IMG/VR virus record: IMGVR_UViG_3300040733_000115
Coordinates: 1 to 40,502 of that record
Reading direction: 5' to 3' (one strand)
Source: a virus
Lineage: Duplodnaviria > Caudoviricetes
DNA length: 40,502 nt
The position numbers and the translations under genes are program-made. The notes under the pieces are model-generated. The model was not told where the DNA came from. It saw only the letters and a list, made by a program, of their open reading frames with translations, and did not search any database. Of the stretch, positions 2,026 through 23,535 are shown piece by piece. Each line of letters starts with the position of its first letter. Position 1 is the first letter of the stretch.

Positions 2026-2252
2026 GTTTTACAGAGCCTAAATTAACGGAGGCCATGAAGTCGTTTATGCAATGGCGCCGGTATCGCATCCGTCACGTCC
2101 CAACCAATAGGTGGTGGGAAGGTCACGCACAATCGCCTGAGGATGCCGTCAGGTATGCGAGAGAGGATAACAGGATTTTCCGTGAAGGAGAGCTCGACAT
2201 TAAAGTGAAAACCCGCAACGGCTGTGGAGGATGGGCAAAGGTACGTGTCTGA
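2022..2252 (+). CDS. Hypothetical protein
   Basis: ATGA overlap with the upstream gene; stop overlaps the primase start region. Confidence 0.6.
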   Translation: MSFTEPKLTEAMKSFMQWRRYRIRHVPTNRWWEGHAQSPEDAVRYAREDNRIFREGELDIKVKTRNGCGGWAKVRV

Positions 2253-5250
2253 TTTTGAAAGGGTAAAAGAACGACTCGACATCCAGCAGGTCATCGAGGA
2301 GTCGACCGGCTTCGCGATGAAAAAGCATCATCTCGAGGAGTGCCCTTTTTGCGGCGGTCATGCATGTTTTAGTATCGACCGCGAGAAAGGCTTCTATAAG
2401 TGCTTCCAGTGTCCCGCCACCGGTGACGTCTTTACCTTCCTGGAAAATTACTACAATGTAGACAAAGCGGAAGCCCTCCGGAGAGCTGCGGAGCTCGCTG
2501 GCATTGCGCTCACCGAAAAGAAACATAAAGACCCGAAGCTCACAACAAAGGAGAGGATCTTTCTCACAGCCGCAGAGTATTATCACACCCTTGCCGTCTC
2601 AAACGGCGGCAAAACCTATTACATCGAACAGCGCGGCCACAGCGAGGAATCTCTTAAGGCCATGAAGGTAGGATGGTCAGACGGTGGCCTGGCGGATCAC
2701 CTGGCGCAAAAGGGATTTGCTCCGGGAGACATTAAAGCCTCCGGACTTGTAAAAAAGACGTCCTCGAACGGCTCCGGCCTGGTTGACTTTTTCGCGCGAA
2801 ACCTCGCCGTATTTCCTCACTGGCTTGACGGCCGGGTCCTCCACTTCACGATGAAGGACCCGCAAAAGAAGCATATGTATCAACTCCCTGCAGAGGCTCG
2901 CGCGAAGGAATGGCGGTTTTACAACCAGGGAGCGCTCGCGCGATTCGGCGAGGTCATCGTTGTCGAAGGGGAGAACGATCTCCTTTCCGTGCTCGATGCC
3001 GGCATCGGTCATGTCATCGGCCTCATAGGCCAGCCCTCAGATGATCAGATTAAGACGCTGCGGGTACATTGCGCCAAGAAGCATATTTACCTATGGCTCG
3101 ACAACGACGAGGATCCTGAGAAGCCTCTGACGAAAGGGAAAGGCTTCGTCAGGAAGATCTGCACCGAGCTCGCCGGCGAACAGAATATACACATCATCAC
3201 CTATCCGGAGGAATATAAAGATCCGGACGATTACATCAGGGCATATACAGGCGATCGCAAACGCGAGATCAAGCGGCTCCAGGAAGAAGCTGTCGATTAC
3301 ATCACATGGGAGATTGCAGAGATCGCGAAGCTGGAGGGGCTTGATAAACGACTAACGGCACTGGAAGGCCGGAAGGTTTTCGCGGCGCTCGCGGAAATGA
3401 TGGAGGTGACCCAACTCGTTTACATCGAAAAGCTCGAAGCGATCGGGTTCACCCGGAAGGCTATCCAGGAAAAGATCGAGGTGAGCCACGAGCTGGGGCG
3501 CGCCCTCGAGCTCTACTTTCATACCCTTCAAAACAAGAGGGAGGGAGATCCTAACCTTGTCGCGCAGATCGTCTTCAAACACCTGAGCAAACAGGGGCGT
3601 TTTTTCCGGGACAGCGAGCATAGGACATACCTGTTCTACCAGCACTTTATCTATGAGATCGGTAACAACAGGCCGTTCAACGCCCTGATGAAACGGACGA
3701 CGAAACTGCTTCCGACAAAGGAGCCGGGGCGATCGGTCTGGGAAAGCATTGCATCGGAGGCATACAACGCCGGGACCAAGATCGACCTGGAAGGATGGAT
3801 CCACACGGACCGTAATACCGACACGCTGTTCATAAACCTGAACGGCGTGAACAATTCCATACTCAAGGTCTCACGTGAGTGTATTGAGGAGATCCCGAAC
3901 GGGCTGAACGATGATGGGATATTACTCCGGTCTTCCCGGAAGATCCTGCCGCTCAACTTTCTTCCCGATGTGTCCGTAAAGGAAGGCATGCAGGCCCTGA
4001 AAGAGACCGTCTTCGATAACCTGCCTTGTGAGCGGGAAAACAGGTATCTGGTCCTTTGCTGGTTTATGACTGCCTTCCTGCTCGACTTCGCGCCGTACAT
4101 GGCGCTGATGAAATTTTCAGGCCCCACTAACTCCGGCAAGACGACGGCGGCAAAGCTTCTTTCGCTGTTGATCTACGGCAGCGAGCACCTGGGTGATCCG
4201 AGCACTGCGGCGATGTATGCGGTGAGCTCGCAGAATCCGCTTTTGATCGTCGACAACCTGGAGAGTGACGACATCACAAAAAGCGGCCTCAAGTTCCTTC
4301 TGCTCAGTGCGACAAAAGGCGGCAAGGAGAAGCGCACCCAGGGAACCGAGACGGGGACGACAGAAGAGGTCCCGAAGGCCCTTGTGCTGATCACGGCGAT
4401 CGAGCCATTTACGAAAGCGGAGCTGATCAACAGGACCTATGATGTCGAGTACAGCGCAAAATTCAAAAGTGACGATTTTATAGAGGACGAGGTTATCAGA
4501 CAACTCGTGAAGAAGCGGGACCTCATACTGAGCGCTATCATCAGGTTCATTCAGAAAGACGTCCTTCCAAACCTCGCAAAGAGAAGGGACTATATTACCA
4601 TCCTGAAAAAAGAATATAAGGGTCATGCCAAGAACAGGACCGACGAGTTTATGGCCTTGCTCATGCTGATCCTGGAAAAGCTGGTGAAGTATATCCCTTA
4701 TTACGAAGAGGGGAATGTGTTTTATGGTCTTGAGGATGGAGACGACGATATACATAAAGCGTGGATCGAGTATCAGGATGCGAAGGCAAAGGATACAGAG
4801 ACAGCTACAAACTCAATTATTAAGATGCTCGACGGGCTGGTCTCTGAGTGTTTATTAAGAATGAAGTCTCTGGAAAAGATCGATACGGTGGATCACAAAG
4901 ACTATGTGGAAGAAGTCTATATCTACCAGCACCCGGAGTACGGCCTTGAGATCATCAAGACAAAGCCTGAGGTCTGTACTGATGAGGACGGGCAGGAATA
5001 TATGAAAACATTTGTCGAGTTCATCACCACGCCAAAGGACTTAGTTATGGCCTTTGACCGGTTCTGTAGGAACAACGGCATCCGGAACCCATACAGTACG
5101 GCAGGGGTTTTCGGGCAGCGGTTGAAGAACGACCGGCATCTATTCACCAAAGGAAATTGGGAAATTATTAGCCAGGAAGGGCATGAGCCATACTGGAAGG
5201 TTGTAAAAGGAGAAAGGTTTTGGAGATTCAGAAAGACGATCATTCGATAG
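2245..5250 (+). CDS. dnaG: DnaG-type primase (Zn finger + TOPRIM) fused to a P-loop NTPase/helicase (about 1000 aa)
   Basis: CPFCGGH..CFQC zinc finger; VEGEND, LDND and KDPDDY TOPRIM motifs; Walker A GPTNSGKT, Walker B-like LLIVDN; likely GTG start at 2245 (ORF open from 2224). Confidence 0.9.
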   Translation: MSDFERVKERLDIQQVIEESTGFAMKKHHLEECPFCGGHACFSIDREKGFYKCFQCPATGDVFTFLENYYNVDKAEALRRAAELAGIALTEKKHKDPKLTTKERIFLTAAEYYHTLAVSNGGKTYYIEQRGHSEESLKAMKVGWSDGGLADHLAQKGFAPGDIKASGLVKKTSSNGSGLVDFFARNLAVFPHWLDGRVLHFTMKDPQKKHMYQLPAEARAKEWRFYNQGALARFGEVIVVEGENDLLSVLDAGIGHVIGLIGQPSDDQIKTLRVHCAKKHIYLWLDNDEDPEKPLTKGKGFVRKICTELAGEQNIHIITYPEEYKDPDDYIRAYTGDRKREIKRLQEEAVDYITWEIAEIAKLEGLDKRLTALEGRKVFAALAEMMEVTQLVYIEKLEAIGFTRKAIQEKIEVSHELGRALELYFHTLQNKREGDPNLVAQIVFKHLSKQGRFFRDSEHRTYLFYQHFIYEIGNNRPFNALMKRTTKLLPTKEPGRSVWESIASEAYNAGTKIDLEGWIHTDRNTDTLFINLNGVNNSILKVSRECIEEIPNGLNDDGILLRSSRKILPLNFLPDVSVKEGMQALKETVFDNLPCERENRYLVLCWFMTAFLLDFAPYMALMKFSGPTNSGKTTAAKLLSLLIYGSEHLGDPSTAAMYAVSSQNPLLIVDNLESDDITKSGLKFLLLSATKGGKEKRTQGTETGTTEEVPKALVLITAIEPFTKAELINRTYDVEYSAKFKSDDFIEDEVIRQLVKKRDLILSAIIRFIQKDVLPNLAKRRDYITILKKEYKGHAKNRTDEFMALLMLILEKLVKYIPYYEEGNVFYGLEDGDDDIHKAWIEYQDAKAKDTETATNSIIKMLDGLVSECLLRMKSLEKIDTVDHKDYVEEVYIYQHPEYGLEIIKTKPEVCTDEDGQEYMKTFVEFITTPKDLVMAFDRFCRNNGIRNPYSTAGVFGQRLKNDRHLFTKGNWEIISQEGHEPYWKVVKGERFWRFRKTIIR

Positions 5251-5263
5251 GTGCTCAAGGCTG

Positions 5264-5598
5264 GGGTGCAAAGCTCCAACCGAAAGCGATCGATAGAGAT
5301 TCTAATCAAAAAGCACTCTTTAACGCTGATATTTATAACTCATTAATATTATTGAATATATATTTTTTACCTTTCCATCAGGAAATATTTTTGAAACAAC
5401 TATCAAAAACAGCTGCACCTTTGCACCCTTTTAACCTTAAATTCTTTATTATTAATAAGTTAAGTGGGGTGTAATGGATGGTGCAGCAGGGTGCAAAGGG
5501 GTGCAAAGGTGGTGCAATAGACAGCCATCTCGGAGCTTTGCACCCTGACCTAAATCAGCCATCATCAAGGGTTTACCCCCAAATGGTGCAGTGGTGCA
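5264..5598. repeat. Iteron array / putative replication origin (10 copies of GGTGCA in both orientations around AT-rich DNA)
   Basis: GGTGCA at 5265, 5480, 5490, 5500, 5511, 5585, 5593; TGCACC at 5414, 5422, 5539; perfect 14-bp inverted repeat 5264-5277/5532-5545; directly follows the primase-helicase gene. Confidence 0.75.
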
Positions 5599-6094
5599 AA
5601 GGTAAAAAAGGTATCATAACAGTTTTTTTACCTGGGATCCTGCTGATTGAGTATAAAAAAAAGACATTGTTTATACTTAGTTATTTAATAGTGCTGATAT
5701 GCGGTTCATGCAGGCCAGTTAAGGGTTTACGTTACCCTCGCCTCTCTCTCTGTCAACCAGTTTTAGTCATGTGGTTAACGAGACAGACGAAAGGACGAAA
5801 TCAGAGAGCTTGTTTTACTGCACATAATTATAAACTATGCGATAAGAGGTTATTACCATCACCTATTTTCAATTACTTAGGAAGGCCAGTTTGTAAGAAA
5901 ACTGCGATTAAAATTAAATTCATTCTGTTCCTGGAGATCTGTTCGGTCCTCCGATGCCTACCCCCCCATGAAAAAAACCAGTTTTGCCCTGATTCGTCCC
6001 CCCCATTACCGCATATAAATTGTAGCATATCCCAAAACCCCTTTTTGTCTTTAGGTCCGTCTTTAGTTTCTCAGGAAAAGGGGGGCTTGGGGGG

Positions 6095-7060
6095 ATGATG
6101 TCCGGAAAGCTTCTTTCAGACTTTGCCCGCCATTTGAAGGTATTGCAGGCCCTGTCCGATAGCAGCGTGAATGTCTATCTGCAGAAGATCAACGAGTTCC
6201 TGGACTGGCTTACCTCACAGAACCGCCAGCGCATCACGAGAAAGGATATTGAGGACTATCTCGAAGCCTGTTTTTATCACGGCAACTCGAACGCTACGCG
6301 CCTTTCGAAGCTCGTCGCCATCAAGAAGTATTTCCGGTACCTCATATATGCCGGGATTGTCCAGGAGGATCCCACTGAAGAGATCCCGCGCCCCCGCCGG
6401 CGCAAGAAGTTTATAGCGATGTTTACAAAAAATGAGGTCCTCCGGATCTTCGCCGCAATAGATATTAAAACAGAGACTGGTTTGCGTGATGCCGTGATTT
6501 TTATCCTTGCGGTTTTCTGTGGCCTCCGTGCCGGCGAGATCTCCGGTCTCACCCTGCAGGACATCATCGATGTCGGGAAATCGCTTGACGTGCATATCAC
6601 CGGCAAGTTCGACAAAGAAAGGCAGGTCTATCTCTGGAAGGTACCATCGGAACATATCCGCCAGTGGCTCGCCGTACGGATGTCGCAACATGCCCGCGCC
6701 GCCGATCCGCTGATTATCTCCTATCGTCGCGGCGGGCGTCCGCAGGGTAACCGGCTGACCCTTTCAATGCTTGACCGTATTTGTAAAAAATACGCCCAGC
6801 TTGCCGGGATCCAGAAGCCGAAGATCTCGATGCACATGTTCCGCGCGACCCACGCGAACGACCTCAGGTCTGTTGAAGGTTATGACACGCCGGCGATCGC
6901 GGAGCGCCTGGGACATGAGAACATAGCTACAACAAACAATTACATCTCCACGCGCGGCAGGATCCACAAGACGTATCCGAGCCTTGCGGCATACTGGAGA
7001 GAGTTCAACGTAATATGGAGGGAGAATGATGGAGATGACCCTGGGGGGATCAATGCCTAA
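6095..7060 (+). CDS. Tyrosine recombinase (XerC/D-like, no arm-binding domain)
   Basis: Core-binding N-terminal domain; catalytic R (GLRAGE), K (GKFDKER), HxxR (HMFR), H (LGH), Y (TTNNY). Confidence 0.92.
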   Translation: MMSGKLLSDFARHLKVLQALSDSSVNVYLQKINEFLDWLTSQNRQRITRKDIEDYLEACFYHGNSNATRLSKLVAIKKYFRYLIYAGIVQEDPTEEIPRPRRRKKFIAMFTKNEVLRIFAAIDIKTETGLRDAVIFILAVFCGLRAGEISGLTLQDIIDVGKSLDVHITGKFDKERQVYLWKVPSEHIRQWLAVRMSQHARAADPLIISYRRGGRPQGNRLTLSMLDRICKKYAQLAGIQKPKISMHMFRATHANDLRSVEGYDTPAIAERLGHENIATTNNYISTRGRIHKTYPSLAAYWREFNVIWRENDGDDPGGINA

Positions 7061-7340
7061 ATCCGAAAACCGGGCCGCTTTGGACGGACTTTTTCAACGG
7101 CTGTGCTCGGATTTCGGCGAGGCATCTGGATTCTCGATCATCAAAACGATCGTCGAGGAGCTCGGAGGCCTCCGCGTGAGCATACCTGATCTGCAGGATC
7201 TCGAGCGTGAGGAGCGCGATCGCCGGATCACGAGCCTTTTTAACGGCAGGAATTATGCCGAACTTGGCGACCGGTTCGGGCTATCGCCCCGCCAGGTACG
7301 TCATATTGTTGATGGGAAAAGGAGAAAAAGTGAAATTTAA
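7053..7340 (+). CDS. mor: Mor/C-family transcription activator
   Basis: LGGLRVSIP...RDRRI...FNGRNYAELGDRFGLSPRQVRHIV matches the Mu Mor/C signature; overlaps the recombinase stop. Confidence 0.85.
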   Translation: MPKSENRAALDGLFQRLCSDFGEASGFSIIKTIVEELGGLRVSIPDLQDLEREERDRRITSLFNGRNYAELGDRFGLSPRQVRHIVDGKRRKSEI

Positions 7341-7536
7341 CCCTGTAATCGTGATTCTTTTATTTGGCCTTGCCGGTGTCGTACTGAACATTTTTCAGAG
7401 TGTCTGGGGGTATGTGCTGTGGATTCCGACAAACCTTTCCATGGCATACCTGAATCGCAAGAAATGGCCCATAGCCGCGCTTTTTATTGTGTACACGATA
7501 TCGTGCATATGGGGAATCGTGAAATGGAGCAATTGA
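7330..7536 (+). CDS. Small membrane protein, PnuC-like
   Basis: Hydrophobic segments with WGYVLWIPTN and IWGIVKW pattern; GTG start overlapping the mor end. Confidence 0.55.
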   Translation: MKFNPVIVILLFGLAGVVLNIFQSVWGYVLWIPTNLSMAYLNRKKWPIAALFIVYTISCIWGIVKWSN

Positions 7537-7760
7537 CAGAAGTAAAAAACCAGCTCAAAACAGCATTGGTTTGTGCGGCACGTCTCGCCCTTGAAGCCCG
7601 GCTTCTCCGCGAGGCTTCTGCCGACGATAACTTTTCCATGAACTCCATGGACGTCCGCGCTCTCGCAGAAAATTTACAGCAATTGGCGGACCGCACCAGG
7701 GAAGCCATTATTTTTCTCACCCGGGAATTATCCCGGACGAAAAATGAGTTTGTGCAATGA
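7524..7760 (+). CDS. Hypothetical helical/coiled-coil protein
   Basis: ATG at 7524 overlapping the upstream gene. Confidence 0.55.
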   Translation: MEQLTEVKNQLKTALVCAARLALEARLLREASADDNFSMNSMDVRALAENLQQLADRTREAIIFLTRELSRTKNEFVQ

Positions 7761-7790
7761 TCTGCCAGACCGTTTCACGACGGAATGGTA
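7753..7790 (+). promoter_or_regulatory. Putative Mor/C-activated late promoter, copy 1
   Basis: TGCAATGATCTGCCAGACCGTTTCAC-N7-TGGTA; near-identical copies at 18548 and 23498. Confidence 0.7.
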
Positions 7791-7802
7791 TGAAATAGAA
7801 GA

Positions 7803-7892
7803 CGGACAGTAGTCCAGGGAGTTCGCACCTCCCTATTAGACCATGCGTTATAGCGCATGACGGGATAACCCGCTACCATCCGCGTAGTCAGT
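7803..7892 (-). ncRNA. Putative structured antisense RNA (four-way junction)
   Basis: Minus strand: 10-bp closing stem CGGAUGGUAG/CUACUGUCCG (2 G-U pairs) enclosing three hairpins (CGGG-UUAU-CCCG; CAUGCG-CUAUAA-CGCAUG; GGGAG-GUGCGAA-CUCCC); promoter directly upstream. Confidence 0.6.
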
Positions 7893-7898
7893 CGCGAA

Positions 7899-7927
7899 AT
7901 TGTAGCAGGGAAACCCGCCCAGGTCAA
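7899..7927 (-). promoter_or_regulatory. Leftward sigma70-type promoter
   Basis: Minus strand TTGACC (7927-7922), 17-bp spacer, TG-n-TACAAT (7904-7899). Confidence 0.7.
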
Positions 7928-7940
7928 ACGGGAGGTGCCC

Positions 7941-9242
7941 TTGTCATTCGTTGGCTCAATCAATGAAAAACTGAGGAAGTTCTTTTATACCCACGCCGGC
8001 GTCCTTGCGGACCGCAAATGCTATATAGGCTGTTCCGGGAATTTCACGATCGAGCAGATCATCACCCGTCATTGCGCGAGCGCGGAGATCTACAGCAATG
8101 ATGTTTCCCTTTATTCCTCTGTTATCGGTTATATGCTCGCCCATGGGCGCACCCTTCCTATGGAATTCATAAACCCGGAGCTCTCCTGGGCTAATAAATA
8201 TATTTCTCTTGGTCATGCCGAGGCTGTCGCCACGGTCCTCCTGGTGCTTGAGCTCCTGAAATATGAAAAGCGAAAAAACCCCTATTCAGAAAGAATGTGG
8301 CAGGCGTACCTGGTCAATTTTGATTTGCTCCATGAAAAGACCCTCAAAAGGGTACGGGCTGCAGCAGAGCATATCCATATCAGGGAATATACAATGACGG
8401 ACGTATACGATTATTATCCCCGGCAGGACGGCGTGAGCATCGGATTTTTGCCTACCTATGCTGGCGGGTACGAGAAGCTTTTCGCCCGTCTCGAGGAGTC
8501 CGTAGCGTGGGACAAGCCCGCCTATCTCATGCTGACGGAAGAGCGCCGCGAGGCTACGATAGAGAAGATGACCCATGGCGAATATATCCTTTATGATGAC
8601 CGCGAGCGTGGAGATCTGCCATGCGTCGCCCGCGTCGACCTTTTCGGCAAGCATACCGTTTTCATTTACAGCAACCTCGAATTCGGGCGCGGCCTTTTCC
8701 GGAAGAAGATCAACGAGAAGATCTCGCCGTACAACCTTCTCATGCCCGATGAAGAAATGCCCGCTGCAGGAGTCAGCGTCATCGAGGCGGATCTCCCGAC
8801 GATCAACCATTACCGAAACATGTTCCTGAGCAAAAAGATACAGCCTGGATCCGGGGGCCCTTGTTATCTTGTATTCACCGGCGAGAAGCTTTTTGGCTTT
8901 CTGATCTTCCAGGCATACTCGCAAAAAGGAGGTCCTAAAGACGAGATTTACCTGTTGTCTGACTTTGTGGTCCCGAGCGCGAGGCATCGCCGCCTTGCAA
9001 AGCTCCTGCTCATGGTAACACAGTGTAAGGACATGAAAGAGGTCCTCTCGGAGAAGATCGTCCGGGACTATAAAGGGATCCTCACGACAGCTTTTACAGA
9101 TCAGCCTGTCAGTATGAAATATCGCGGCGTCTATGAGCTCGCTAAAAGAGGGAAGGGTTTTCTCAATTACAGGACGGAATTCAAAGACTTCACTTTCAAG
9201 GAGGTAGTCAGGATATGGATGAAAAAATACGAGAAACGATAA
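7941..9242 (+). CDS. Putative DNA base-modification enzyme: divergent adenine-methyltransferase fold + C-terminal GNAT/Mom-like domain
   Basis: Motif I-like YIGCSGNFTIE, SNDVS, motif IV position FLPTY (not DPPY); C-terminal YLLSDFVVPSARHRRLAKLLL and TTAFTDQPVSMKYRG; TTG start after GGAGG. Confidence 0.6.
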   Translation: MSFVGSINEKLRKFFYTHAGVLADRKCYIGCSGNFTIEQIITRHCASAEIYSNDVSLYSSVIGYMLAHGRTLPMEFINPELSWANKYISLGHAEAVATVLLVLELLKYEKRKNPYSERMWQAYLVNFDLLHEKTLKRVRAAAEHIHIREYTMTDVYDYYPRQDGVSIGFLPTYAGGYEKLFARLEESVAWDKPAYLMLTEERREATIEKMTHGEYILYDDRERGDLPCVARVDLFGKHTVFIYSNLEFGRGLFRKKINEKISPYNLLMPDEEMPAAGVSVIEADLPTINHYRNMFLSKKIQPGSGGPCYLVFTGEKLFGFLIFQAYSQKGGPKDEIYLLSDFVVPSARHRRLAKLLLMVTQCKDMKEVLSEKIVRDYKGILTTAFTDQPVSMKYRGVYELAKRGKGFLNYRTEFKDFTFKEVVRIWMKKYEKR

Positions 9243-9940
9243 ACCAGCTGAACCAGTTTTTACAGAACATGCCTTACAAGATCGATATCGTAAGCCCGCG
9301 CGAGATCCTTCTCCTCGAGAAGAACGCCCGTTATATGTCCCAGGAGATGTTTCAGAACCTTGTAGAAAACATAAAAAAGGACGGCGCCCTTTCTTCGCTT
9401 CCGCTCTGCTATCGTGAAAAGGACGGCCGTCTTATCGTCCTGAGCGGCAATCACAGGGTACAGGCTGCCACTCATGCGGGCCTTCAGGAGATCATGGTGC
9501 TTATCATCGACAAAGAGCTTTCTCGCCAGGAACAGGTAGCGATCCAGCTTTCCCATAACGCCATCGAAGGAAAAGACGACCCGGTCATATTGAGAGAGCT
9601 CTGGTCAGAAATAGAAATTATCGACCTCAAGGTGTATGCCGGCCTTGATAGCGAGCTGGTCCGTGAGCTGGAAAAGATGGAGTTTGCCTCAATCGTGGAG
9701 GCCCGCCCAGACTATAAACACTTGATGCTGCTCTTTTTACCGGAAGAGGCTGAGCAGATCCGGAAGACCCTCGAGGAGATCGATCTGCTATTTTCCGGTG
9801 ACGAGAACTACATCCTTTCAAGGAAGAACTACGACGACGTCTTCCGCCTCCTGGTCGACATAAAGGACAAGTACAACATCATCAACAACCCGACCGCCTT
9901 CATGAAGATCGTGGAGCTGGCAAAGGCAAATTTAGATTAA
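9215..9940 (+). CDS. ParB/Srx-fold protein, probable partner of the modification enzyme
   Basis: KNARYM..LVENIKKDG..P..VLSGNHRVQAA ParB N-terminal signature; overlaps the upstream gene. Confidence 0.8.
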   Translation: MDEKIRETINQLNQFLQNMPYKIDIVSPREILLLEKNARYMSQEMFQNLVENIKKDGALSSLPLCYREKDGRLIVLSGNHRVQAATHAGLQEIMVLIIDKELSRQEQVAIQLSHNAIEGKDDPVILRELWSEIEIIDLKVYAGLDSELVRELEKMEFASIVEARPDYKHLMLLFLPEEAEQIRKTLEEIDLLFSGDENYILSRKNYDDVFRLLVDIKDKYNIINNPTAFMKIVELAKANLD

Positions 9941-10064: not shown

Positions 10065-11171
10065 ATGACCGTGAAAGAGAAGAACCGCAACCTGCATCAA
10101 GCGAAAAGCTCGAAGAAGGACGAGTTCTACACCCAACTCGCCGACATTGAGCGAGAGTTGAAGCACTACAAACAGCACTTCAAGGGCAAGGCGGTGTATT
10201 GCAACTGTGACGATCCGCGTGTGAGCAATTTCTTCCACTATTTCTCATACAACTTCGAGAAACTGGGTCTCAAGAAGCTCATCGCCACCTGCTACAAGAA
10301 CCAGGACATGGATCTGTTTAGCAGGAACGACTCTGAACAGGCCATTTACCTCGAATATGAAGGGGACAAAAGCGGAAACAATGTCCCCGACCCCGAGGAA
10401 ATAGGCATTATGCACCTGAAGGGTGACGGCGACTTCCGGAGCGATGAAACGATCGAACTCTTGAAACAAGCCGACATTGTAGTGACAAATCCGCCCTTTT
10501 CGCTGTTTCGCGAGTATCTCGCTCAACTGATCGAATACGACAAACAATTCCTGATTATCGGAAACGTAAACGCGATTACTTACAAGGAAGTCTTTTATCT
10601 GATAAAGGATAATAAACTGTGGCTTGGTCCAAGCATACGAAGCGGCGACAGGGAATTTGGCGTCCCTGATGATTATCCACTAACCGCAGCGGGATATAGG
10701 ATTGATGATCAAGGCAAGAAATACATTCGCGTCAAGGGTGTCCGCTGGTTTACTAATCTGGACTACAAAGAACGTCACGAGGATATGATTCTCTACAAAA
10801 TCTATAGCCCAGAGGAATATCCGACTTACGACAACCATGATGCTATCGAAGTCAGTAAGACAAAAGATATTCCATCAGATTACGACGGTGTGATGGGCGT
10901 GCCGATTACTTTTCTGGATAAGCATAATCCTGCCCAGTTTGAGATCGTCGGGATTACTAAGACATGGTTTGGTGCGGCGACAAAGACTTATCCACCCCAA
11001 ACACAAGTAAGCGTAAATGGTCAGAAAAGCATTGTGACAAAACTGAACGACGGGGCCACGCTGAAGATATGCTCACCTCCGCATGGGCAAACATATTACA
11101 TGGTCAGAAAGAGCTACTACGTTCAACTGTATGCCCGTCTACTTATCAGACGAAAGAGGGAGAGTAAATGA
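10065..11171 (+). CDS. Adenine-specific DNA methyltransferase, EcoRI family
   Basis: KDEFYT, YCNCDDP, GDGDFRS, VTNPPFSLFRE, GVMGVPITF motifs. Confidence 0.9.
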   Translation: MTVKEKNRNLHQAKSSKKDEFYTQLADIERELKHYKQHFKGKAVYCNCDDPRVSNFFHYFSYNFEKLGLKKLIATCYKNQDMDLFSRNDSEQAIYLEYEGDKSGNNVPDPEEIGIMHLKGDGDFRSDETIELLKQADIVVTNPPFSLFREYLAQLIEYDKQFLIIGNVNAITYKEVFYLIKDNKLWLGPSIRSGDREFGVPDDYPLTAAGYRIDDQGKKYIRVKGVRWFTNLDYKERHEDMILYKIYSPEEYPTYDNHDAIEVSKTKDIPSDYDGVMGVPITFLDKHNPAQFEIVGITKTWFGAATKTYPPQTQVSVNGQKSIVTKLNDGATLKICSPPHGQTYYMVRKSYYVQLYARLLIRRKRESK

Positions 11172-12268
11172 AGATCGAACTCAAGGAGATCACCGTCCGT
11201 GAACTGACCGACTGTTATGAGGACAACGCTGAAGGGGGCGTTGTCGGTTACGGTGGTAAATTAGATATTCGCCCACCCTTTCAACGGGAATTCATCTACA
11301 AGGACAAGCAGCGCGATGCCGTCATTGACACCATCACCAAGGATTTCCCGCTGAACGTAATGTACTGGGCGGTGCGTGAGGATGGCAATTTTGAGGTCAT
11401 CGACGGGCAGCAGCGCACTATCTCGGTTTGTCAATATGTCGAGGGCGATTTTTCGGTAAAGGTCGGCAATTTTCCCGAAAAGAGGGCGTTCCACAACCTG
11501 CAAAACGACGAGCAAGAGCAAATCCTGAATTACAAGCTCATGGTCTACTTTTGTAACGGCGCGGATAGCGAAAAGCTCGAATGGTTCAAGACCATCAACA
11601 TTGCGGGCGAGAAACTGGCTGAACAGGAACTTAGAAATGCCGTGTACTCCGGTCCGTGGGTGACAGATGCAAAGCGGTATTTCAGCAAAACTCATTGTCC
11701 CGCTTACGGATTAGGCGGTGACTATCTGAACGGCACGGCCATCCGCCAAGACTACCTTGAAACGGTGATCAAGTGGATCAGCAAGGACGACATTGAGGGC
11801 TACATGGCGACAAACCAGCGCAAGTCCAATGCCAACAGCCTGTGGCTGTACTTTCAGTCAGTTATGGCTTGGGTTCAGGCCACCTTCCCGACGTACCGCA
11901 AAGAGATGAAGGGCCTCGAGTGGGGCGAACTCTACAACGCGTTCAAGAATCAGGAATATGACCCGAAGAAGCTCGAAGCCAAGATTTCAAGGCTCATGGA
12001 AGATGAGGACGTTACCAACAAGAAGGGCATTTACTCCTACGTGCTGGACGGGAAAGAAAAACACCTGAATATCCGGGCTTTCAGCAACAACCAGAAGCGG
12101 GAGGCCTATGAACGACAGAAAGGCGTTTGCCCTGTCTGCAAAGAGCATTTCGAGATTGAAGAAATGGAAGGAGACCACATAACGCCTTGGCACGAAGGCG
12201 GGAGAACAAGTGGCGAGAATTGTCAGATGCTCTGTAAAGAAGACAACAGAAGAAAATCGGGGAAATGA
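11168..12268 (+). CDS. DUF262 (GmrSD-like) + C-terminal HNH endonuclease
   Basis: RPPFQREF, VIDGQQR, FKTIN DUF262 motifs; CPVC..EGDHITPW..GG..NCQMLC..N HNH; ATGA-coupled to the MTase. Confidence 0.88.
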   Translation: MKIELKEITVRELTDCYEDNAEGGVVGYGGKLDIRPPFQREFIYKDKQRDAVIDTITKDFPLNVMYWAVREDGNFEVIDGQQRTISVCQYVEGDFSVKVGNFPEKRAFHNLQNDEQEQILNYKLMVYFCNGADSEKLEWFKTINIAGEKLAEQELRNAVYSGPWVTDAKRYFSKTHCPAYGLGGDYLNGTAIRQDYLETVIKWISKDDIEGYMATNQRKSNANSLWLYFQSVMAWVQATFPTYRKEMKGLEWGELYNAFKNQEYDPKKLEAKISRLMEDEDVTNKKGIYSYVLDGKEKHLNIRAFSNNQKREAYERQKGVCPVCKEHFEIEEMEGDHITPWHEGGRTSGENCQMLCKEDNRRKSGK

Positions 12269-12748: not shown

Positions 12749-13159
12749 ATGGAAATTATAACACAGAACACAGGAACCCCACAAGCAACAAAAGAACCGC
12801 AAAACACACCGAGCTTAAAAGCCGAGCTGGCACACTTCACGGGAACGTCCGGGTGGTATCGGTATAGTCTTTTCTCAGCCTTACTGACAGACGGTACTCT
12901 TTATCTCGCAGAAAAGGCCGGTGCATATTGGCTGATGGATCTTATAGCCAGCTACCGCCGTAAGCTCCAGGGAGAACCCTTCCAGGTATGGGACCTGAAA
13001 GTATCAGACCATGAGGGCATAGTTACCTGCGAAGACGGGAACAGCAACAAGCTCGTGGAGCAAAAGATCAAATATACGGACTTCCCACTACCTGAGATAA
13101 AGCTTTATGCAGTTTTGGACAGCGGGCGCACAATCATCCTGCTGCCTTCGGAATATTAG
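12749..13159 (+). CDS. DUF6876-like protein
   Basis: FTGT..WYR..LTDG..YLAEKAGAYWLMDLI..FQVW..YTDFPL..LLPSEY pattern. Confidence 0.65.
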   Translation: MEIITQNTGTPQATKEPQNTPSLKAELAHFTGTSGWYRYSLFSALLTDGTLYLAEKAGAYWLMDLIASYRRKLQGEPFQVWDLKVSDHEGIVTCEDGNSNKLVEQKIKYTDFPLPEIKLYAVLDSGRTIILLPSEY

Positions 13160-13168
13160 GAGGCCGGC

Positions 13169-13399
13169 ATGAAAGAAGCTACCCTGAGCCAGTACCGGCA
13201 GTTATCACATTCACTATCGGCACGCGAAAAGCTCCAGGTCGAAATACATCTGAAAAACGACCGGGTTCTTGCCGCGCTTTATGACCCCTTCTTTAATACT
13301 GTCACTATCGGGGGAATCACCATTCCTGCGGCAGAGCTTTCCTTCTGGACAAAGCTCTGCTGGGGATCGAAACCAAAAAAGATCACAAAAAAACTTTAA
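13169..13399 (+). CDS. Hypothetical protein
   Basis: AGGAGG RBS, within operon. Confidence 0.65.
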   Translation: MKEATLSQYRQLSHSLSAREKLQVEIHLKNDRVLAALYDPFFNTVTIGGITIPAAELSFWTKLCWGSKPKKITKKL

Positions 13400-13409
13400 G
13401 GAGGCACTC

Positions 13410-13667
13410 ATGGCATTTGACGAAAAGAAAGATAAGAGGATTCTGGAAGTAAAGAACGAGGAAACCGGTCTTTGGTTATCGCTTTGCAGTTACGACGGAG
13501 GCGAGCCGAAGGTACAGATCGGACCCCGAGAGATCGAGAAGAAGAACGGCGAAACCATGTACATCAAGGCGGGCCGCCTGAGCCTGGACGAATTCGAGTG
13601 GTCGATCAGCGTCTATTCCACTCAGTTCAAAAAGATTGCGCCCCTAAGCGCGAAAGCGGGAGGTTGA
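13410..13667 (+). CDS. PC4/YdbC-like ssDNA-binding protein
   Basis: LSLCSYDGGEPKVQI..R....G...KAGRLSLDE pattern; AAGGAGG RBS, ATG at 13410. Confidence 0.55.
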   Translation: MAFDEKKDKRILEVKNEETGLWLSLCSYDGGEPKVQIGPREIEKKNGETMYIKAGRLSLDEFEWSISVYSTQFKKIAPLSAKAGG

Positions 13668-13670
13668 TCC

Positions 13671-14297
13671 ATGGGAAACGTAACGGCACTGAAAAAGAAG
13701 AAGGAAGAGTTCAGCCTTGACGATATCCTTTCATCGGCACAGACCACAAAGGAGAAATCATCATCGACAAAGGTCCCGATACTCACAGTATCAAAAGAGA
13801 CCCAGGAGAAAGTCTCGCGCATCCGGGAGCTGAAAGACCAGCTTGACAGCCTCACGAGTGAATTTGAGGTTGTCTCTGCGGAAGTTATAGAGGAGATAGA
13901 TTCTCTCCGCATGGACGTTCTTAAAAAACAGGGATACAGTTCTTCGGTTAAAGTCCCGGATTCAAAGGGAATGAGCATTATGCTCTCCTGGAGCGCGAAC
14001 TATTCCAAGGTCCCTATCGACAATAAAGACGCCCTCAAACTTATCGCGAAGGACCGTTTTGAAGGCTTCTTCGGCACGGAGATAGTCATCAAGGTAAAGG
14101 ATGTCAGCGAGGAATCTCTTAAAGAGCTTGTATCTACAGTCGGCCCCGAGCAGTTCGCAAGGTTCTTTGAAGTAGAACGATGGATAAAACCGACGAAGCG
14201 GTACACGGAAGAATTCGTCACTGCCTTCACGGATGCCGAGAGAGAAAAGCTCTCCGCGATCGTGAAGCAGTACAAACCGAGCATCAAGGTGAAGTGA
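13671..14297 (+). CDS. Hypothetical protein with N-terminal coiled coil
   Basis: GGAGG RBS; within operon. Confidence 0.75.
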   Translation: MGNVTALKKKKEEFSLDDILSSAQTTKEKSSSTKVPILTVSKETQEKVSRIRELKDQLDSLTSEFEVVSAEVIEEIDSLRMDVLKKQGYSSSVKVPDSKGMSIMLSWSANYSKVPIDNKDALKLIAKDRFEGFFGTEIVIKVKDVSEESLKELVSTVGPEQFARFFEVERWIKPTKRYTEEFVTAFTDAEREKLSAIVKQYKPSIKVK

Positions 14298-14887
14298 TGA
14301 GGTACTATTACCCCTGCAAGCCAAATGAGATCAGCGCAAATAGCCGCTATTTCGAACAACTCGACAATGATGTCCGGTGGATTGCGGAGGTTAAAAAGAA
14401 CGGCTGGCGGTGCCTCGCCGATAAAGAGGCCGGCAGCTTCGTTCTCTGGACCAGGCACAAGACGTTTATCGTGGATCCGTTAAAAGATCTGCGGTCGGCA
14501 CTTTTGTCAATGCTCCCGAATAATACGCGCATCGACGGCGAGCTGATCAACAACAGGACGAAGGACGTCAAAGGCATCTATTATGTCTTTGACATTCTCG
14601 TCTACAAGGGAGAAACACTGTTTAACCTTCCTCTGCGCGAAAGGAGGGAGATTCTGGAAGGGGCTATCAAGCCCCTTCCATTCATCGAATTAGCACAGCA
14701 GTTCACGACCGGGAAAAAAGAGCTTTACTCGAAAGCGATCCTTAACGAGGTCAATGAGGGAATCGTCATGAAAAAGCTCGACAGCCGGTATCTTGCATCA
14801 CAGACGCGTTGTCCGCAAAACCCTTACTGGCTAAAGGTAAAAAGGCCAGAAAAACACATCTATACTAAAAAAGGAGGAACCACATGA
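14297..14887 (+). CDS. ATP-dependent ligase-family nucleotidyltransferase (adenylation domain only)
   Basis: Motif I EVKKNGWR, III IDGEL, IIIa YVFDIL, IV EGIVMK, V WLKVK; ends about 14 aa after motif V; TGATG overlap. Confidence 0.85.
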   Translation: MRYYYPCKPNEISANSRYFEQLDNDVRWIAEVKKNGWRCLADKEAGSFVLWTRHKTFIVDPLKDLRSALLSMLPNNTRIDGELINNRTKDVKGIYYVFDILVYKGETLFNLPLRERREILEGAIKPLPFIELAQQFTTGKKELYSKAILNEVNEGIVMKKLDSRYLASQTRCPQNPYWLKVKRPEKHIYTKKGGTT

Positions 14888-16086
14888 AAACAATAGTAAG
14901 GATTGAAAACGTAGGAACGGAGGTCATTTTAGGCAGGTGCACGGTGAGAGAAGCTATGTCTATCCTGGGTCTCGATCATCGCGAATGGAAAACACACAAG
15001 ATAAAAGAGGATGAAAAGAAGGTCGAGTATCAGCTGACACAGAAACCCGCGCCATTCGTCCCGAAGAAGATTTCCGTATCCCGCAGGGAGATAGAGGACG
15101 CCCTCAAGGTCGCTGCGGATTTTACAGCGACAGGTCCCCTGCCTCTTCTCCAGAGTGTGCGCATCACAACGGCGGGGACATCACTCACGATCTGCGCGAC
15201 CGATCTTGAGCGGAGCTGGTGCAAGACCATCCCCGTTGCCGGCGATGCAGTCGATATATGTGTACCCTTGAAACTCCTTTATTCGGAGATCAAGGCGCTC
15301 CACAGCAATATCACCATTGTTGAAATTGAACGATCGGAAAAGGCGATATCGGTTAATGGCCGCTGCCAGCTTAACGTATCAAGCGCCGAGGAATTCCCTG
15401 AATTTCCCGTTGTGGGCGGCGAAGCGGTCTCTATTCATGAGCTGGACCTTAAACTGAAAAAGGTCATACCCGCTGTCTCGAAGGATGAAACGCGGTACAC
15501 CCTCACCGGCGTCTTCTTTGATTTTGAAAAAGGGAAGCTCGTGGCCACGGATGGTTTCCGGCTCCATTATGAAGAGATTGAAGCAGCGCCGCTCAAGGGC
15601 GTTATCGTCCCGCGCAAGACCGCCGCACTCATCGTTAAGTATCCCGGGACGGAAGAGATAAATGTCAGTGAGAAGCACATATCATGCAGGTTTAAAGGCG
15701 GCGAGATGGTATCGCGCCTGATCGACGGGCAGTTTGCGGAATATGCCAGCGTCCTTGAAGGTGCGAGCCCGGGCAATACCTTTGAGTTCGATTCAAAGGA
15801 GTTCTTCAAGGTCCTCCAGGGCGCTATACCTGTTGCAGACTCCAAGGCGATAATTCTCACTGTCAACGGCGCCCTGCAGATCGAGACGAGCAACGAAAAC
15901 GGTACATATAAGTGGCAGATCCCCTGCAAGTCCATGAAGCCCACCACTATCAGGTACAATTTTGCATTTCTCGCCGATGCGATCAACGCGTACGCCGGAG
16001 ACGGAAACGTGGTTATCGGCTTTCCAGATACCTACGGCGCGACGATCGTCAACGGTAAGGCCCTCGTGATGCCGGTAAGGATTTAG
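14884..16086 (+). CDS. dnaN: DNA polymerase III beta sliding clamp homologue with about 60-aa N-terminal extension
   Basis: ATDLE, AEEFP, DETRYTLTGV, VATDGFRL, VIVPRK, SRLIDGQF, LVMPVR motifs. Confidence 0.9.
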   Translation: MKTIVRIENVGTEVILGRCTVREAMSILGLDHREWKTHKIKEDEKKVEYQLTQKPAPFVPKKISVSRREIEDALKVAADFTATGPLPLLQSVRITTAGTSLTICATDLERSWCKTIPVAGDAVDICVPLKLLYSEIKALHSNITIVEIERSEKAISVNGRCQLNVSSAEEFPEFPVVGGEAVSIHELDLKLKKVIPAVSKDETRYTLTGVFFDFEKGKLVATDGFRLHYEEIEAAPLKGVIVPRKTAALIVKYPGTEEINVSEKHISCRFKGGEMVSRLIDGQFAEYASVLEGASPGNTFEFDSKEFFKVLQGAIPVADSKAIILTVNGALQIETSNENGTYKWQIPCKSMKPTTIRYNFAFLADAINAYAGDGNVVIGFPDTYGATIVNGKALVMPVRI

Positions 16087-16095
16087 GGGGCTCTA

Positions 16096-16503
16096 ATGAT
16101 TTACTCCATAGGATACGAAAAGATCACGCTCCCGGACCTCAAAAGGGTCATGAAACAATACCATATCGGCCTGGTCATAGACGTGCGCTCGATACCCTAT
16201 GCCCGCGTCGCCAAGCAGGAGTTTAACAGGAACAAGCTTGCCGAACACTTCGGCCCTCGCTATGAATGGAAGGGGAATATCCTGGGCGGGAAAACAGGCC
16301 CCGCCCTTGAGGCCGGCATAGAATACCTGATGAGGCAGAACGGGAAAAAATCCAATATCCTTCTCTGTGTTGAAAACGACCCGAAGAGGTGCCACCGTTT
16401 TTATGACATCTCCGTCAGGCTTCTTGAAAGAGGGATCGAGATAATCCACATCTACGACGGCAGGGCGGTCAGTACAACAGAGTTGAAAAAGGAGGCCATA
16501 TAA
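16096..16503 (+). CDS. DUF488 family protein
   Basis: IYSIGY..VIDVRSIP..LGG..LLCVE.DP.RCHR. Confidence 0.85.
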   Translation: MIYSIGYEKITLPDLKRVMKQYHIGLVIDVRSIPYARVAKQEFNRNKLAEHFGPRYEWKGNILGGKTGPALEAGIEYLMRQNGKKSNILLCVENDPKRCHRFYDISVRLLERGIEIIHIYDGRAVSTTELKKEAI

Positions 16504-17340
16504 ATGCGATTATCAATTGAAAAACTTTATCCGAACCCGAACCAGCCACGAAAAGATTTTGACCAGACAGGGCTTGAGGAGCTCGCTATGTCGATAAGGC
16601 AATATGGAGTCCTTGAGCCTCTTGTGGTTACCAAAAGGGGCGACCGCTATATGATCGTTGCAGGAGAGAGGCGTTTCCGCGCCTCTCTCCTTGCCGGTAT
16701 GAAGGAAGTACCGGTTGAAATCATCGAGGCAGACGACGCCCTGGTCGAAGAGCTGGCTCTGCTTGAGAATATCCAGCGTCAGGACCTGAACATTATCGAG
16801 GAGGCGAAAGGCTACCAGTCATTACTTGACCGGGGCTGGACAAAAGAAGAGCTTGCCCGGAAGATGGGATTCAAGCAGGTATGGAGGATAGACGAGCGCA
16901 CAAGCCTTTTGAACCTGACTCCAGAGCATCAAAAACTTGTCATTAACGGCACTATCGGCCATTCACAGGCATTTGAGATGAGCAGGGTAGCGCCCGACCG
17001 GCAGGCGCTTATCTTGAAGAAGATCCTCGCCGGCGAGCTCAATTCATACAACAAGCTCCGTTCATTTGTGGACGGGCTTATCCTGATAGAACAGCAGGGG
17101 AACATCTTTGAGCTGAACATGTTGACCGAGGAACAGAAGAAGGCCCTGAATGATTTCGATTCGCTCCTTACCGGTATCGAGAGATTCATCAGGAAGGCCG
17201 ACGACCTGGAACATTTCAAGAAGGCGGTCTTCCATTCAAACATCAAACCCGAGCGTCTTGACCTCATCATCAAGCACCTGATGAAGCTGAGGAAGCTCGT
17301 CCTGACAGGAAAAGGCGTCAAAGACGCCCTCGCGGCATGA
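16504..17340 (+). CDS. parB: ParB/Spo0J-family protein
   Basis: PNPNQPRKDF, IVAGERRFRA, LLENIQRQDLN, followed by an HTH. Confidence 0.9.
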   Translation: MRLSIEKLYPNPNQPRKDFDQTGLEELAMSIRQYGVLEPLVVTKRGDRYMIVAGERRFRASLLAGMKEVPVEIIEADDALVEELALLENIQRQDLNIIEEAKGYQSLLDRGWTKEELARKMGFKQVWRIDERTSLLNLTPEHQKLVINGTIGHSQAFEMSRVAPDRQALILKKILAGELNSYNKLRSFVDGLILIEQQGNIFELNMLTEEQKKALNDFDSLLTGIERFIRKADDLEHFKKAVFHSNIKPERLDLIIKHLMKLRKLVLTGKGVKDALAA

Positions 17341-18547: not shown

Positions 18548-18585
18548 TGCAATGATCTGCCAGACCATTTCACGGTTTTGTGATA
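18548..18585 (+). promoter_or_regulatory. Putative Mor/C-activated late promoter, copy 2 (packaging operon)
   Basis: TGCAATGATCTGCCAGACCATTTCAC-N7-TGATA. Confidence 0.7.
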
Positions 18586-18595
18586 ACCGTATGGC

Positions 18596-19459
18596 ATGGC
18601 GGAACACGTATACACCCCGGAAATCATCAAGGCTGCCTTAACCGTAGAAGAGCGTATTCAATACAACGCCCTTCTCGATATATTGCTATCCAAAAAGATC
18701 CTGAACCCGTCGGAACAGAAGAAGTACGACGATTACAAGGCGAAAATAAACAAATACATTGACGGCCAGGCCGCCGCATCTTCAGGGCGGCCCCCATCAG
18801 GAGAACTCGACGAGCCAGGCATCCCCGTGGAGCTGCGTGTCAGGCGTCGCTATACCATGTCTCCGGAGGCTCTCGCCCAGCGGAAGGCCGCCGGTAATTC
18901 ACCTGCCAAGTCCGACAGCATGAAAGGGAACCGCAACGGCTGGAAGCATGGCCGGTATGCGGACGATTTTATCAATAAGATCAAGCCCTGCAAATCGACG
19001 TGCCCGCAGTATCCGTGTTCGCTCGTCTCCGAAGGCGAGGTTGAACCGGGCGACGACTGCCTTGACAAGGTTGAAGTGATCAAGTTCTTCCGGGCGGTGC
19101 ATAACGCCGTGAAGGACAAGAATTATGACGACTTCAATGAGCTGGCGGCCCTGCAGATCGCGAACACGATCAAGGTCATAGACATGCTCATCGAGGATAT
19201 TATCAGGGACGGCACTGTTTTGAAACGCGAGAAACATGACGCTAAAGATAATCTCATCGTTGAATATGTGACCCACCCGTCGCTGCTCGCCCTCCCGAAG
19301 CTTATCGCGGATCTCGGTCTTAATCCAACTGAATTTATGATTACGCCCCGCGCGATCGCACGGGACAAAAACGAAAGGGACGTCGGGAAGACCCTCGCCG
19401 AAATGATGTCCCGCGCCGGCAGGGGGCTCAAAAAGAAAGACCATGAAGAGGATGATTGA
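18596..19459 (+). CDS. Putative terminase small subunit
   Basis: Immediately upstream of the large subunit; GNRNGWKHG motif, Cys cluster, C-terminal HP...LGLNP pattern. Confidence 0.7.
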   Translation: MAEHVYTPEIIKAALTVEERIQYNALLDILLSKKILNPSEQKKYDDYKAKINKYIDGQAAASSGRPPSGELDEPGIPVELRVRRRYTMSPEALAQRKAAGNSPAKSDSMKGNRNGWKHGRYADDFINKIKPCKSTCPQYPCSLVSEGEVEPGDDCLDKVEVIKFFRAVHNAVKDKNYDDFNELAALQIANTIKVIDMLIEDIIRDGTVLKREKHDAKDNLIVEYVTHPSLLALPKLIADLGLNPTEFMITPRAIARDKNERDVGKTLAEMMSRAGRGLKKKDHEEDD

Positions 19460-23497: not shown

Positions 23498-23535
23498 TGC
23501 AACGATCTGCCAGAACATTTCACACTTTTTTGGTA
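23498..23535 (+). promoter_or_regulatory. Putative Mor/C-activated late promoter, copy 3 (head/tail operon)
   Basis: TGCAACGATCTGCCAGAACATTTCAC-N7-TGGTA. Confidence 0.7.

Follow-up and report, generated by a model that had tools for sequence, protein, structure and literature searches.

In a 40,502-nt provirus sequence from a member of the Caudoviricetes (IMG/VR record IMGVR_UViG_3300040733_000115, CheckV completeness 67%; the whole stretch is hereafter called the window), a late-type promoter box, an RNA switch and a gene encoding a fusion of a Dam-like and a GNAT domain are joined in one testable unit of 2.2 kb (7753–9940). We lean slightly towards reading the whole as a late anti-restriction unit, in which DNA would be modified in a Gly-tRNA-dependent manner and expression would be silenced by an antisense RNA. 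Judged by its sequence, the fusion protein very probably modifies DNA and, by analogy with Mom of phage Mu, Gly-tRNA is probably the donor. The GNAT domain would take glycine off a charged tRNA-Gly and place it on a DNA base, likely adenine as for Mu Mom, and the modified phage DNA would evade restriction.

Late-type control is suggested by a 26-bp box that, as a sequence-only reading of the window had claimed, precedes this unit as well as the terminase and head operons. Three copies (7753–7778, 18548–18573 and 23498–23523, with no strand assigned) are present in the window at three mismatches or fewer, while none was found in 100 shuffles. The box is an imperfect dyad, in which 19–20 of 26 positions match its own reverse strand, and every copy is followed, at identical spacing, by a weak −10-like site of the extended type (approximately 7786–7794 for the first copy, the predicted activator site of the late promoter). 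The second copy, found upstream of a probable terminase–portal operon, is 22 nt from the open reading frame (ORF) at 18596, which is followed by a terminase-large-subunit-like gene and the portal gene; the third lies upstream of the head genes. The terminase-like protein (19456–21321, 621 aa) has an ESM feature score of 0.98 to Terminase_6N clusters and no match in Pfam, PHROG, NCBIfam or a PDB sequence search. Box and weak −10 site have the layout that would be expected of activator-dependent late promoters, and a gene for a Mor/C-family late transcription activator is encoded at 7026–7340 on the plus strand (PF08765, E 8e-14; PHROG 532, late transcriptional activator). Thus, all the marks of a Mor/C-activated late promoter that we looked for were found: the dyad with a weak −10 site, several late operons and a Mor-family gene; from the sequence, it is highly likely that all three promoters with a box respond to the Mor-family protein as their activator. 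Among 297 fetched loci, which are labelled here by L numbers (L080, L155 and so on), only L080, the closest relative, contains the box.

The sequence-only reading had also placed a structured leader after the box. The leader does fold stably as mRNA (−61.7 kcal/mol, z −3.9), but its most stable conserved structure, a cloverleaf, is found on the minus strand and not in the mRNA. We predict that this strand encodes an antisense RNA of about 90–95 nt (7796–7888, minus strand), having a 10-bp closing stem and three hairpins (folding z −4.6), with a terminator-like stem and U-rich tail at its 3′ end (7816–7803, minus strand) and a sigma-70-like promoter (7899–7927, minus strand) that comprises a −35 element, a 17-nt spacer and an extended −10 element, matching 10 of 12 consensus positions plus TG. 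Pattern scans provided 15 leader members including that of the window; L165 and L295 were excluded as duplicates, and L290 as degenerate. In all 15, the minus strand folds more stably than the plus strand, and a promoter-like site is located 16–39 nt upstream, scoring 7–11 of 13 on a scale that carries no shuffle control. Seven base pairs show two-sided change among these members, a covariation equalled in none of 500 shuffles, and six consensus G–U pairs of the cloverleaf would become A–C on the plus strand. On sequence evidence of this kind, the antisense RNA in all likelihood exists. A riboswitch reading of the leader was set aside, as it is on the minus strand that the conserved wobble pairs make sense, and as no match was obtained in Rfam.

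The cloverleaf mostly precedes genes for DNA modification. In 14 of the 15 members, the next gene belongs to this functional class: five encode fusions, six D12 methylases (one of them truncated and assigned by its start), two are ParB-like/TAGT operons and one is a truncated ParB-methylase. A covariance model of the antisense RNA, which scores 93 bits at the window by construction, found matches in 14 of 96 genomes of one class and in one of 151 genomes of a phylum sample. Of 19 further matches, 11 precede D12 methylases, one precedes an N6_N4 methylase and one repeats L161; the remaining six (L301, L312, L313, L314, L316 and L318) have no modification gene. Since the cloverleaf accompanies only two of 97 related enzyme loci, it appears to be a portable control cassette that is not intrinsic to the enzyme system. 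In L308, the cloverleaf upstream of a methylase is retained while the promoter spacer is lost. In L159, L163 and L165, the leader lies after a gpA terminase and upstream of an 83-aa ORF, a ParB-like ORF (recognized by eye, with no Pfam match) and a TAGT glycosyltransferase. A second leader type of similar logic, with a minus-strand cloverleaf and an extended −10 element, was seen in L002 (2697–2860) and L088 (5858–6010); here the partner of the middle hairpin is the region of the start codon, the two sides changing in step, and the cloverleaf model did not pick this type up.

No Rfam family, RF02950 (D12-methyl) and the C4-type RNAs included, matches the cloverleaf at the leader, and main-text passages of a report on 224 RNA motifs (PMC5737381) contain no mention of it. 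The P1 C4, P4 CI, P22 sar, lambda OOP and type I antitoxin RNAs, the mechanisms of which serve here for comparison, resemble it in that a small structured RNA lies opposite a leader masking the ribosome-binding site. Unlike these RNAs, however, the cloverleaf is complementary to an anti-Shine-Dalgarno (anti-SD) sequence and not to the Shine-Dalgarno (SD) sequence itself.

In the mRNA, the SD region (7930–7938, plus strand) is complementary to this anti-SD (7825–7833), for which two alternatives exist: a long helix with the SD, predicted to be the OFF state, or a local hairpin (7816–7834, plus strand), which when closed is predicted to be the ON state. To open the SD of the window takes 10.8 kcal/mol when the leader is complete, 9.4 kcal/mol when its 5′ half is removed to mimic the binding of the antisense RNA, and 5.5 kcal/mol with the local hairpin closed; for other genes of the window, the energy is 0.8–5.7 kcal/mol. 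The SD is most open with the local hairpin closed in 13 of the 15 members, and the cognate anti-SD/SD duplexes of 13 members are better than their permutations, none of 20,000 being as good.

We propose that the nascent mRNA would first form the local hairpin, with the SD free, and would later relax into the SD-paired OFF helix. A constitutive antisense RNA would bind leaky transcripts in their 5′ half, exposing a second local anti-SD, and this pairing would provide a long duplex for RNase III. The unit would be silent until the Mor-type activator fires, and protein would be made only from strong late transcription. Repression is thus the favoured mode, the ON fold being transient and the antisense RNA removing leaky transcripts, and from the sequence we consider a repressor role moderately probable. 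A rival that differs in regulation only, and that we regard as a tentative second choice, holds that the antisense RNA is an activator that substitutes for Com and pulls the anti-SD out of the OFF helix, or that its promoter acts by transcriptional interference only. Complementarity between the antisense RNA and the anti-SD is exact, the middle hairpin loop is exposed in the OFF fold, in 10 of 15 members the SD is easier to open once the 5′ half has been removed than in the full leader, and no com zinc-finger gene was found (no PF10122 match above cut-off in the 67%-complete record). However, the gain in the window is only from 10.8 to 9.4 kcal/mol, compared to 5.5 kcal/mol for the local-hairpin state; a sigma-70-type promoter would be expected to supply the activator to the lysogen, a state in which the gene ought to be silent; and interference alone would not need a conserved cloverleaf. 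Beyond the 10 of 15 members that fit activation, several other results count against the switch that we propose. The masking of the SD in the window does not exceed that of shuffles (10.8 kcal/mol is attained with 21 of 200 shuffles of the upstream sequence), and its cognate duplex ranks only sixth of 14. Covariation was not significant in a first alignment of eight leaders, L294 combines a near-perfect promoter and cloverleaf with a lack of cognate anti-SD/SD pairing, and six of the 19 further cloverleaves have no modification gene, as mentioned above.

The fusion gene itself (7941–9242, plus strand) has a TTG start and encodes 433 aa; residues are numbered here in a 435-aa frame from a GTG at 7935. 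The protein matches PF22555 (DAM-like-phage1) at residues 5–248 (E 3e-57, 194 bits) and PF22559 (GNAT-phage-like) at 280–432 (E 4e-38, 131 bits), against a gathering cut-off of 27 bits, and is therefore a full member of two families that are already catalogued in Pfam. It has no match to NCBIfam models or to PF02086 (D12), and a sequence search of PDB with its profile found nothing. The family is large, with 446 matches among the candidates scored and 826 representatives (50% identity clusters) at E values up to 1e-30. A structure model of the fusion (pLDDT 88, pTM 0.60) yielded a mixture of methyltransferases and GNATs in Foldseek; at this pTM, the arrangement of the two domains is uncertain. 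The sequence-only reading had proposed a SAM (S-adenosylmethionine)-binding-like N-terminus and a C-terminal GNAT-like segment, and had named the absence of either fold from structure prediction as grounds for its refutation; comparison domain by domain recovered both, a Dam-class Rossmann fold being predicted over residues 1–250 and a GNAT fold over 277–418, the latter in addition to the PF22559 match.

Within the Dam-like half, the closest structures are Mcbe1 (Z 12.8), E. coli Dam (Z 12.1), DpnM (Z 11.6) and T4 Dam (Z 11.5), placing it near the D12/Dam methyltransferases (PF02086), a class that also includes Hia5/Hin1523, which occupy the mom position. The protein contains YIGCSGNF, SNDVS, FLPTY and SDFVVPSARHRRLAKLLL. 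Unlike in the D12/Dam enzymes, motif I of the family reads CSGxF and motif IV (F/Y)xPTY, with F or Y at position 171 in 47 of 50 diverse members (less than 70% identity) and D, N or S before PTY in none of them, in keeping with the earlier remark that FLPTY stands where N6-adenine methyltransferases carry (D/N)PPY. Hence the catalytic (D/N/S)PP(Y/F/W) motif is absent, while the Dam-class topology and the acidic residues of the SAM pocket are present. Near-invariant among the 50 members are G35, D56, D156, P173-T174-Y175, D343, K356, T384 and S393–G398, the GNAT half being richest in invariant residues; the counts for PTY and SMKYRG are inflated because PTY and PVSMKYRG patterns were used to select enzyme loci, although a pattern-free alignment agrees. 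The Dam-like half would retain a SAM/adenosine pocket and an aromatic stacking residue without the D/N/S that activates N6; most likely it binds DNA and flips the base, in place of the helix-turn-helix (HTH) insertion of Mom, and it may add a second, SAM-dependent step.

A rival that makes both domains catalytic goes further: glycyl transfer would be followed by SAM-dependent addition of a methyl or aminocarboxypropyl group to the new amine, and the base would not be the 6-NcmdA of Mom. For this proposal, which we judge unlikely, speaks the near-invariance of the PTYxGGYE loop and of the SAM-pocket residues G35, D56 and D156, both in the 50 diverse members and in the pattern-free set. Moreover, DPPY activation should be unnecessary for an aliphatic amine. 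Inteins favour active sites, and in L155 (4627–6816) one is inserted directly after the PPTY of the Dam-like domain; several long homologues from the 826-cluster search are split at the same site. A binding or base-flipping role, however, would account for the conservation too, and degenerate Dam domains have been proposed to bind DNA in DndH (PMC10853773), though both motifs are eroded there.

In the GNAT half, residues 277–418 align with Mu Mom (PDB 8BV8) at Z 10.6 and a root-mean-square deviation of 3.1 over 134 residues, and the nearest named cluster by features contains Mom (score 0.88), which we take as a lead only. Several results limit this likeness. Mom ranks first among GNAT structures only marginally, generic GNATs (Z 9.8) following within one Z unit, and there is no similarity by sequence (hhalign probability 0.2%; no match to the Pfam Mom family at E 0.1). 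The residues essential in Mom, according to passages of PMC13219725, are R111, S124, D149 and R151. In a by-eye motif register, R111 falls on the invariant D343, S124 on the invariant K356 and Y159 on Y396; if R111 and S124 are so replaced, the reaction may be a different one. In the model, residues 400–415 form a direct strand hairpin, where the helical, HTH-like insertion of Mom is not found. The fusion is therefore neither a Mom member nor a canonical Dam, and works like Mom at most.

The link to Gly-tRNA comes from the relatives of the unit. Both tRNA-Gly genes and degraded tRNA-like elements were first seen next to the cassette in upstream sequences and with ARAGORN, and a model built from 27 hand-picked elements produced 64 matches in 63 of 165 related loci, 37 of them outside the 27 training sequences. 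All but two of the 64 are co-oriented with the cassette, the distance to it is at most 700 nt for 48 and at most 100 nt for 27, and often only 13–19 nt separate the RNA, which has both acceptor strands, from the start codon. GCG/CGC acceptor ends occur in all, a CC middle loop in 63 and U73 in 60, partly by construction; these features are identity elements of glycyl-tRNA synthetase. The RNAs are divergent, and many have an anticodon loop of 5 nt as well as D and T arms that are eroded; among the 64, one at a distance of 5.5 kb is a normal tRNA, and another is doubtful. In 80 viral loci anchored on DUF488 and used as a control, 16 of the 42 with the enzyme had a match (13 Gly-like and 3 Glu-like), compared to three of the 38 without it, all three inside arrays of 12–23 tRNAs and none solitary (Fisher p 1e-4 for solitary Gly-like RNAs and 0.0016 for any match). 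The three tRNA-Glu-like (CUC) RNAs (L171, 6842–6916; L176, 2651–2726; L177, 1721–1796) adjoin enzymes lacking SDF/PVSMKYRG, the Gly-type signature that the enzyme of the window has, and the type of RNA thus follows the GNAT subfamily.

Because Mom takes its glycine from Gly-tRNA-Gly (passages of PMC13219725) and relatives of the unit carry tRNA-Gly-like RNAs, the simplest reading, by analogy, is that the GNAT of the unit would likewise take glycine from Gly-tRNA; the non-methyl adduct that had been suggested from the sequence is also what the tRNA-Gly link in relatives points to. Against this stand three limits. The RNA is found in 16 of 27 enzyme clusters (50% identity), and the fetched flanks of the other 11 have none; the loci are related and not independent, six of the 16 control positives being contigs already used; and neither a tRNA-Gly-like element in the window nor a tRNA-like gene in the 67%-complete record was detected, so that the phage here would use a host tRNA. 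The cloverleaf of the window was considered as the tRNA-Gly donor and rejected: it has no conserved CC loop and no match to the tRNA model, and it precedes ordinary methylases too.

A different role for the same RNAs, as decoys or substitutes, follows if the GNAT acts on charged tRNA-Gly or on a protein, in the manner of a TacT-like toxin or a host-shutoff enzyme. Toxins are typically under tight antisense control, as is predicted here, and the residues of Mom are not evidently retained; moreover, GNAT toxins acetylate Gly-tRNA-Gly, as stated in passages of PMC13219725. We nonetheless think this quite unlikely, as the GNAT is joined to a domain of the Dam class that includes a recognition subdomain, is located in ParB–terminase neighbourhoods and has the same leader as genuine DNA methylases and an operon for a TAGT glycosyltransferase, and as 5-nt anticodon loops appear unsuited to replacing a translating tRNA. 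Very improbable is an ordinary orphan methyltransferase of atypical motif IV, with an accessory GNAT and with tRNA-Gly pieces left at attachment sites, for although the fold is Dam-class, true D12 methylases use the same leader and tRNA genes are common integration sites, motif IV lacks D/N/S, invariant residues are most numerous in the GNAT half, and the RNAs are whole, co-oriented, often 13–19 nt before the start codon and of a type that tracks the GNAT subfamily.

Returning to the late, Gly-tRNA-dependent unit that we favour, its likeness to the com-mom module of Mu (8BV8; PF25680; passages of PMC13219725, PMC3299994 and PMC7261163) comprises the GNAT fold, an activator-type late promoter, an SD-masking leader, a Gly-tRNA link and a probable anti-restriction role. 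Mom-type genes are described in passages of PMC3299994 and PMC7261163 as toxic, late and tightly controlled, Com being paired with Mom, or with a methylase, in Mu-like phages. Unlike Mom, the unit has a fused Dam-like domain without DPPY and a near-obligate ParB partner, does not evidently keep R111 and S124, lacks the HTH insertion and has no detectable sequence similarity; in the place of Com there is a predicted antisense RNA, and relatives carry dedicated tRNA-like RNAs. Furthermore, the phage here, with its tyrosine integrase and P4-type primase, is not transposable as Mu is. Of the sequence-only reading, the architecture, the late-type control and the analogy with Mom, narrowly the top-ranked GNAT structure, are supported; the predicted RNA control is not of the Com type.

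The partner gene (9215–9940, plus strand) overlaps the fusion gene by 28 nt and encodes a ParB/Srx-fold protein with the SGNHR motif (PF02195 at E 2.7e-5, below cut-off; PHROG 7405), in agreement with the overlap with a ParB-fold gene noted earlier. G78, H80 and R81 (GxHR) are invariant in 52 sequences and the profile matches ParB structures (E 4e-5), while a structure model made without an alignment was unusable (pLDDT 35). The gene-neighbourhood survey of homologues that had been recommended placed this partner directly after the fusion in 136 of the 140 loci having room downstream. ParB–terminase loci have been predicted to modify DNA during packaging (passages of PMC4738411), and the nucleoside triphosphate (NTP) specificity of the ParB fold is described as unpredictable from sequence (passages of PMC12704722). 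In what is the weakest step of our proposal, the partner may bind NTP and help the enzyme to be loaded onto, or driven along, DNA that is being replicated or packaged.

In relatives, the cassette often has terminase genes nearby, and DUF488 proteins form two neighbour clusters, covering 83 and 30 loci; DUF488-N3a (PF22751) and ParB are neighbours of the Pfam families PF22555 and PF22559. In the window, the DUF488 gene (16096–16503, plus strand) is 6 kb away, and its membership in the unit is thus uncertain. Upstream, the window has the gene order P4-type primase, tyrosine integrase and Mor-family gene (2224–7340), and the order integrase to Mor-like gene upstream of the cassette recurs in L162 and L164. 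A small membrane protein with weak similarity to PnuC/NMN transporters is encoded between activator and box (7330–7536). Directly after the unit, an EcoRI-type adenine methylase and a GmrSD/HNH nuclease with AT-rich borders (10065–12268) probably constitute a restriction-type moron. Between the unit and the terminase (12749–17340) are genes for DUF6876, an ATP-dependent DNA ligase, a sliding-clamp (Pol III beta) homologue, DUF488 and a ParB-HTH protein. Besides these, the window encodes portal, head and tail proteins.

Our literature search returned no function, donor, tRNA link or test of the fusion, and no cloverleaf RNA; the likely source papers (Iyer 2013, Nicastro 2023, Burroughs and Aravind 2023) were outside this search. 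To our knowledge, Mom was until recently the only enzyme known to use a charged tRNA for DNA modification. In its boldest form, which we consider doubtful, our proposal is that one polypeptide would combine tRNA-dependent glycyl transfer with a SAM-dependent step to make a base unlike any described; that the amino acid would be set by private, ribosome-incompatible tRNAs, Gly here and Glu in a sister subfamily; and that a so far undescribed, portable antisense-RNA switch, swapped among unrelated phage DNA-modification genes, would take the place of Com.

The leader cloverleaf defines an RNA family that is not in Rfam 15, and the leader suggests a small answer, open to direct test, to the question of how phages without Com keep toxic DNA-modification genes silent. 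If our proposal is true, charged-tRNA DNA chemistry would become general, the property of a widespread and differently built family (826 clusters) with its own tRNA-like donors, and new bases, of interest for restriction evasion and for DNA labelling, may be possible.

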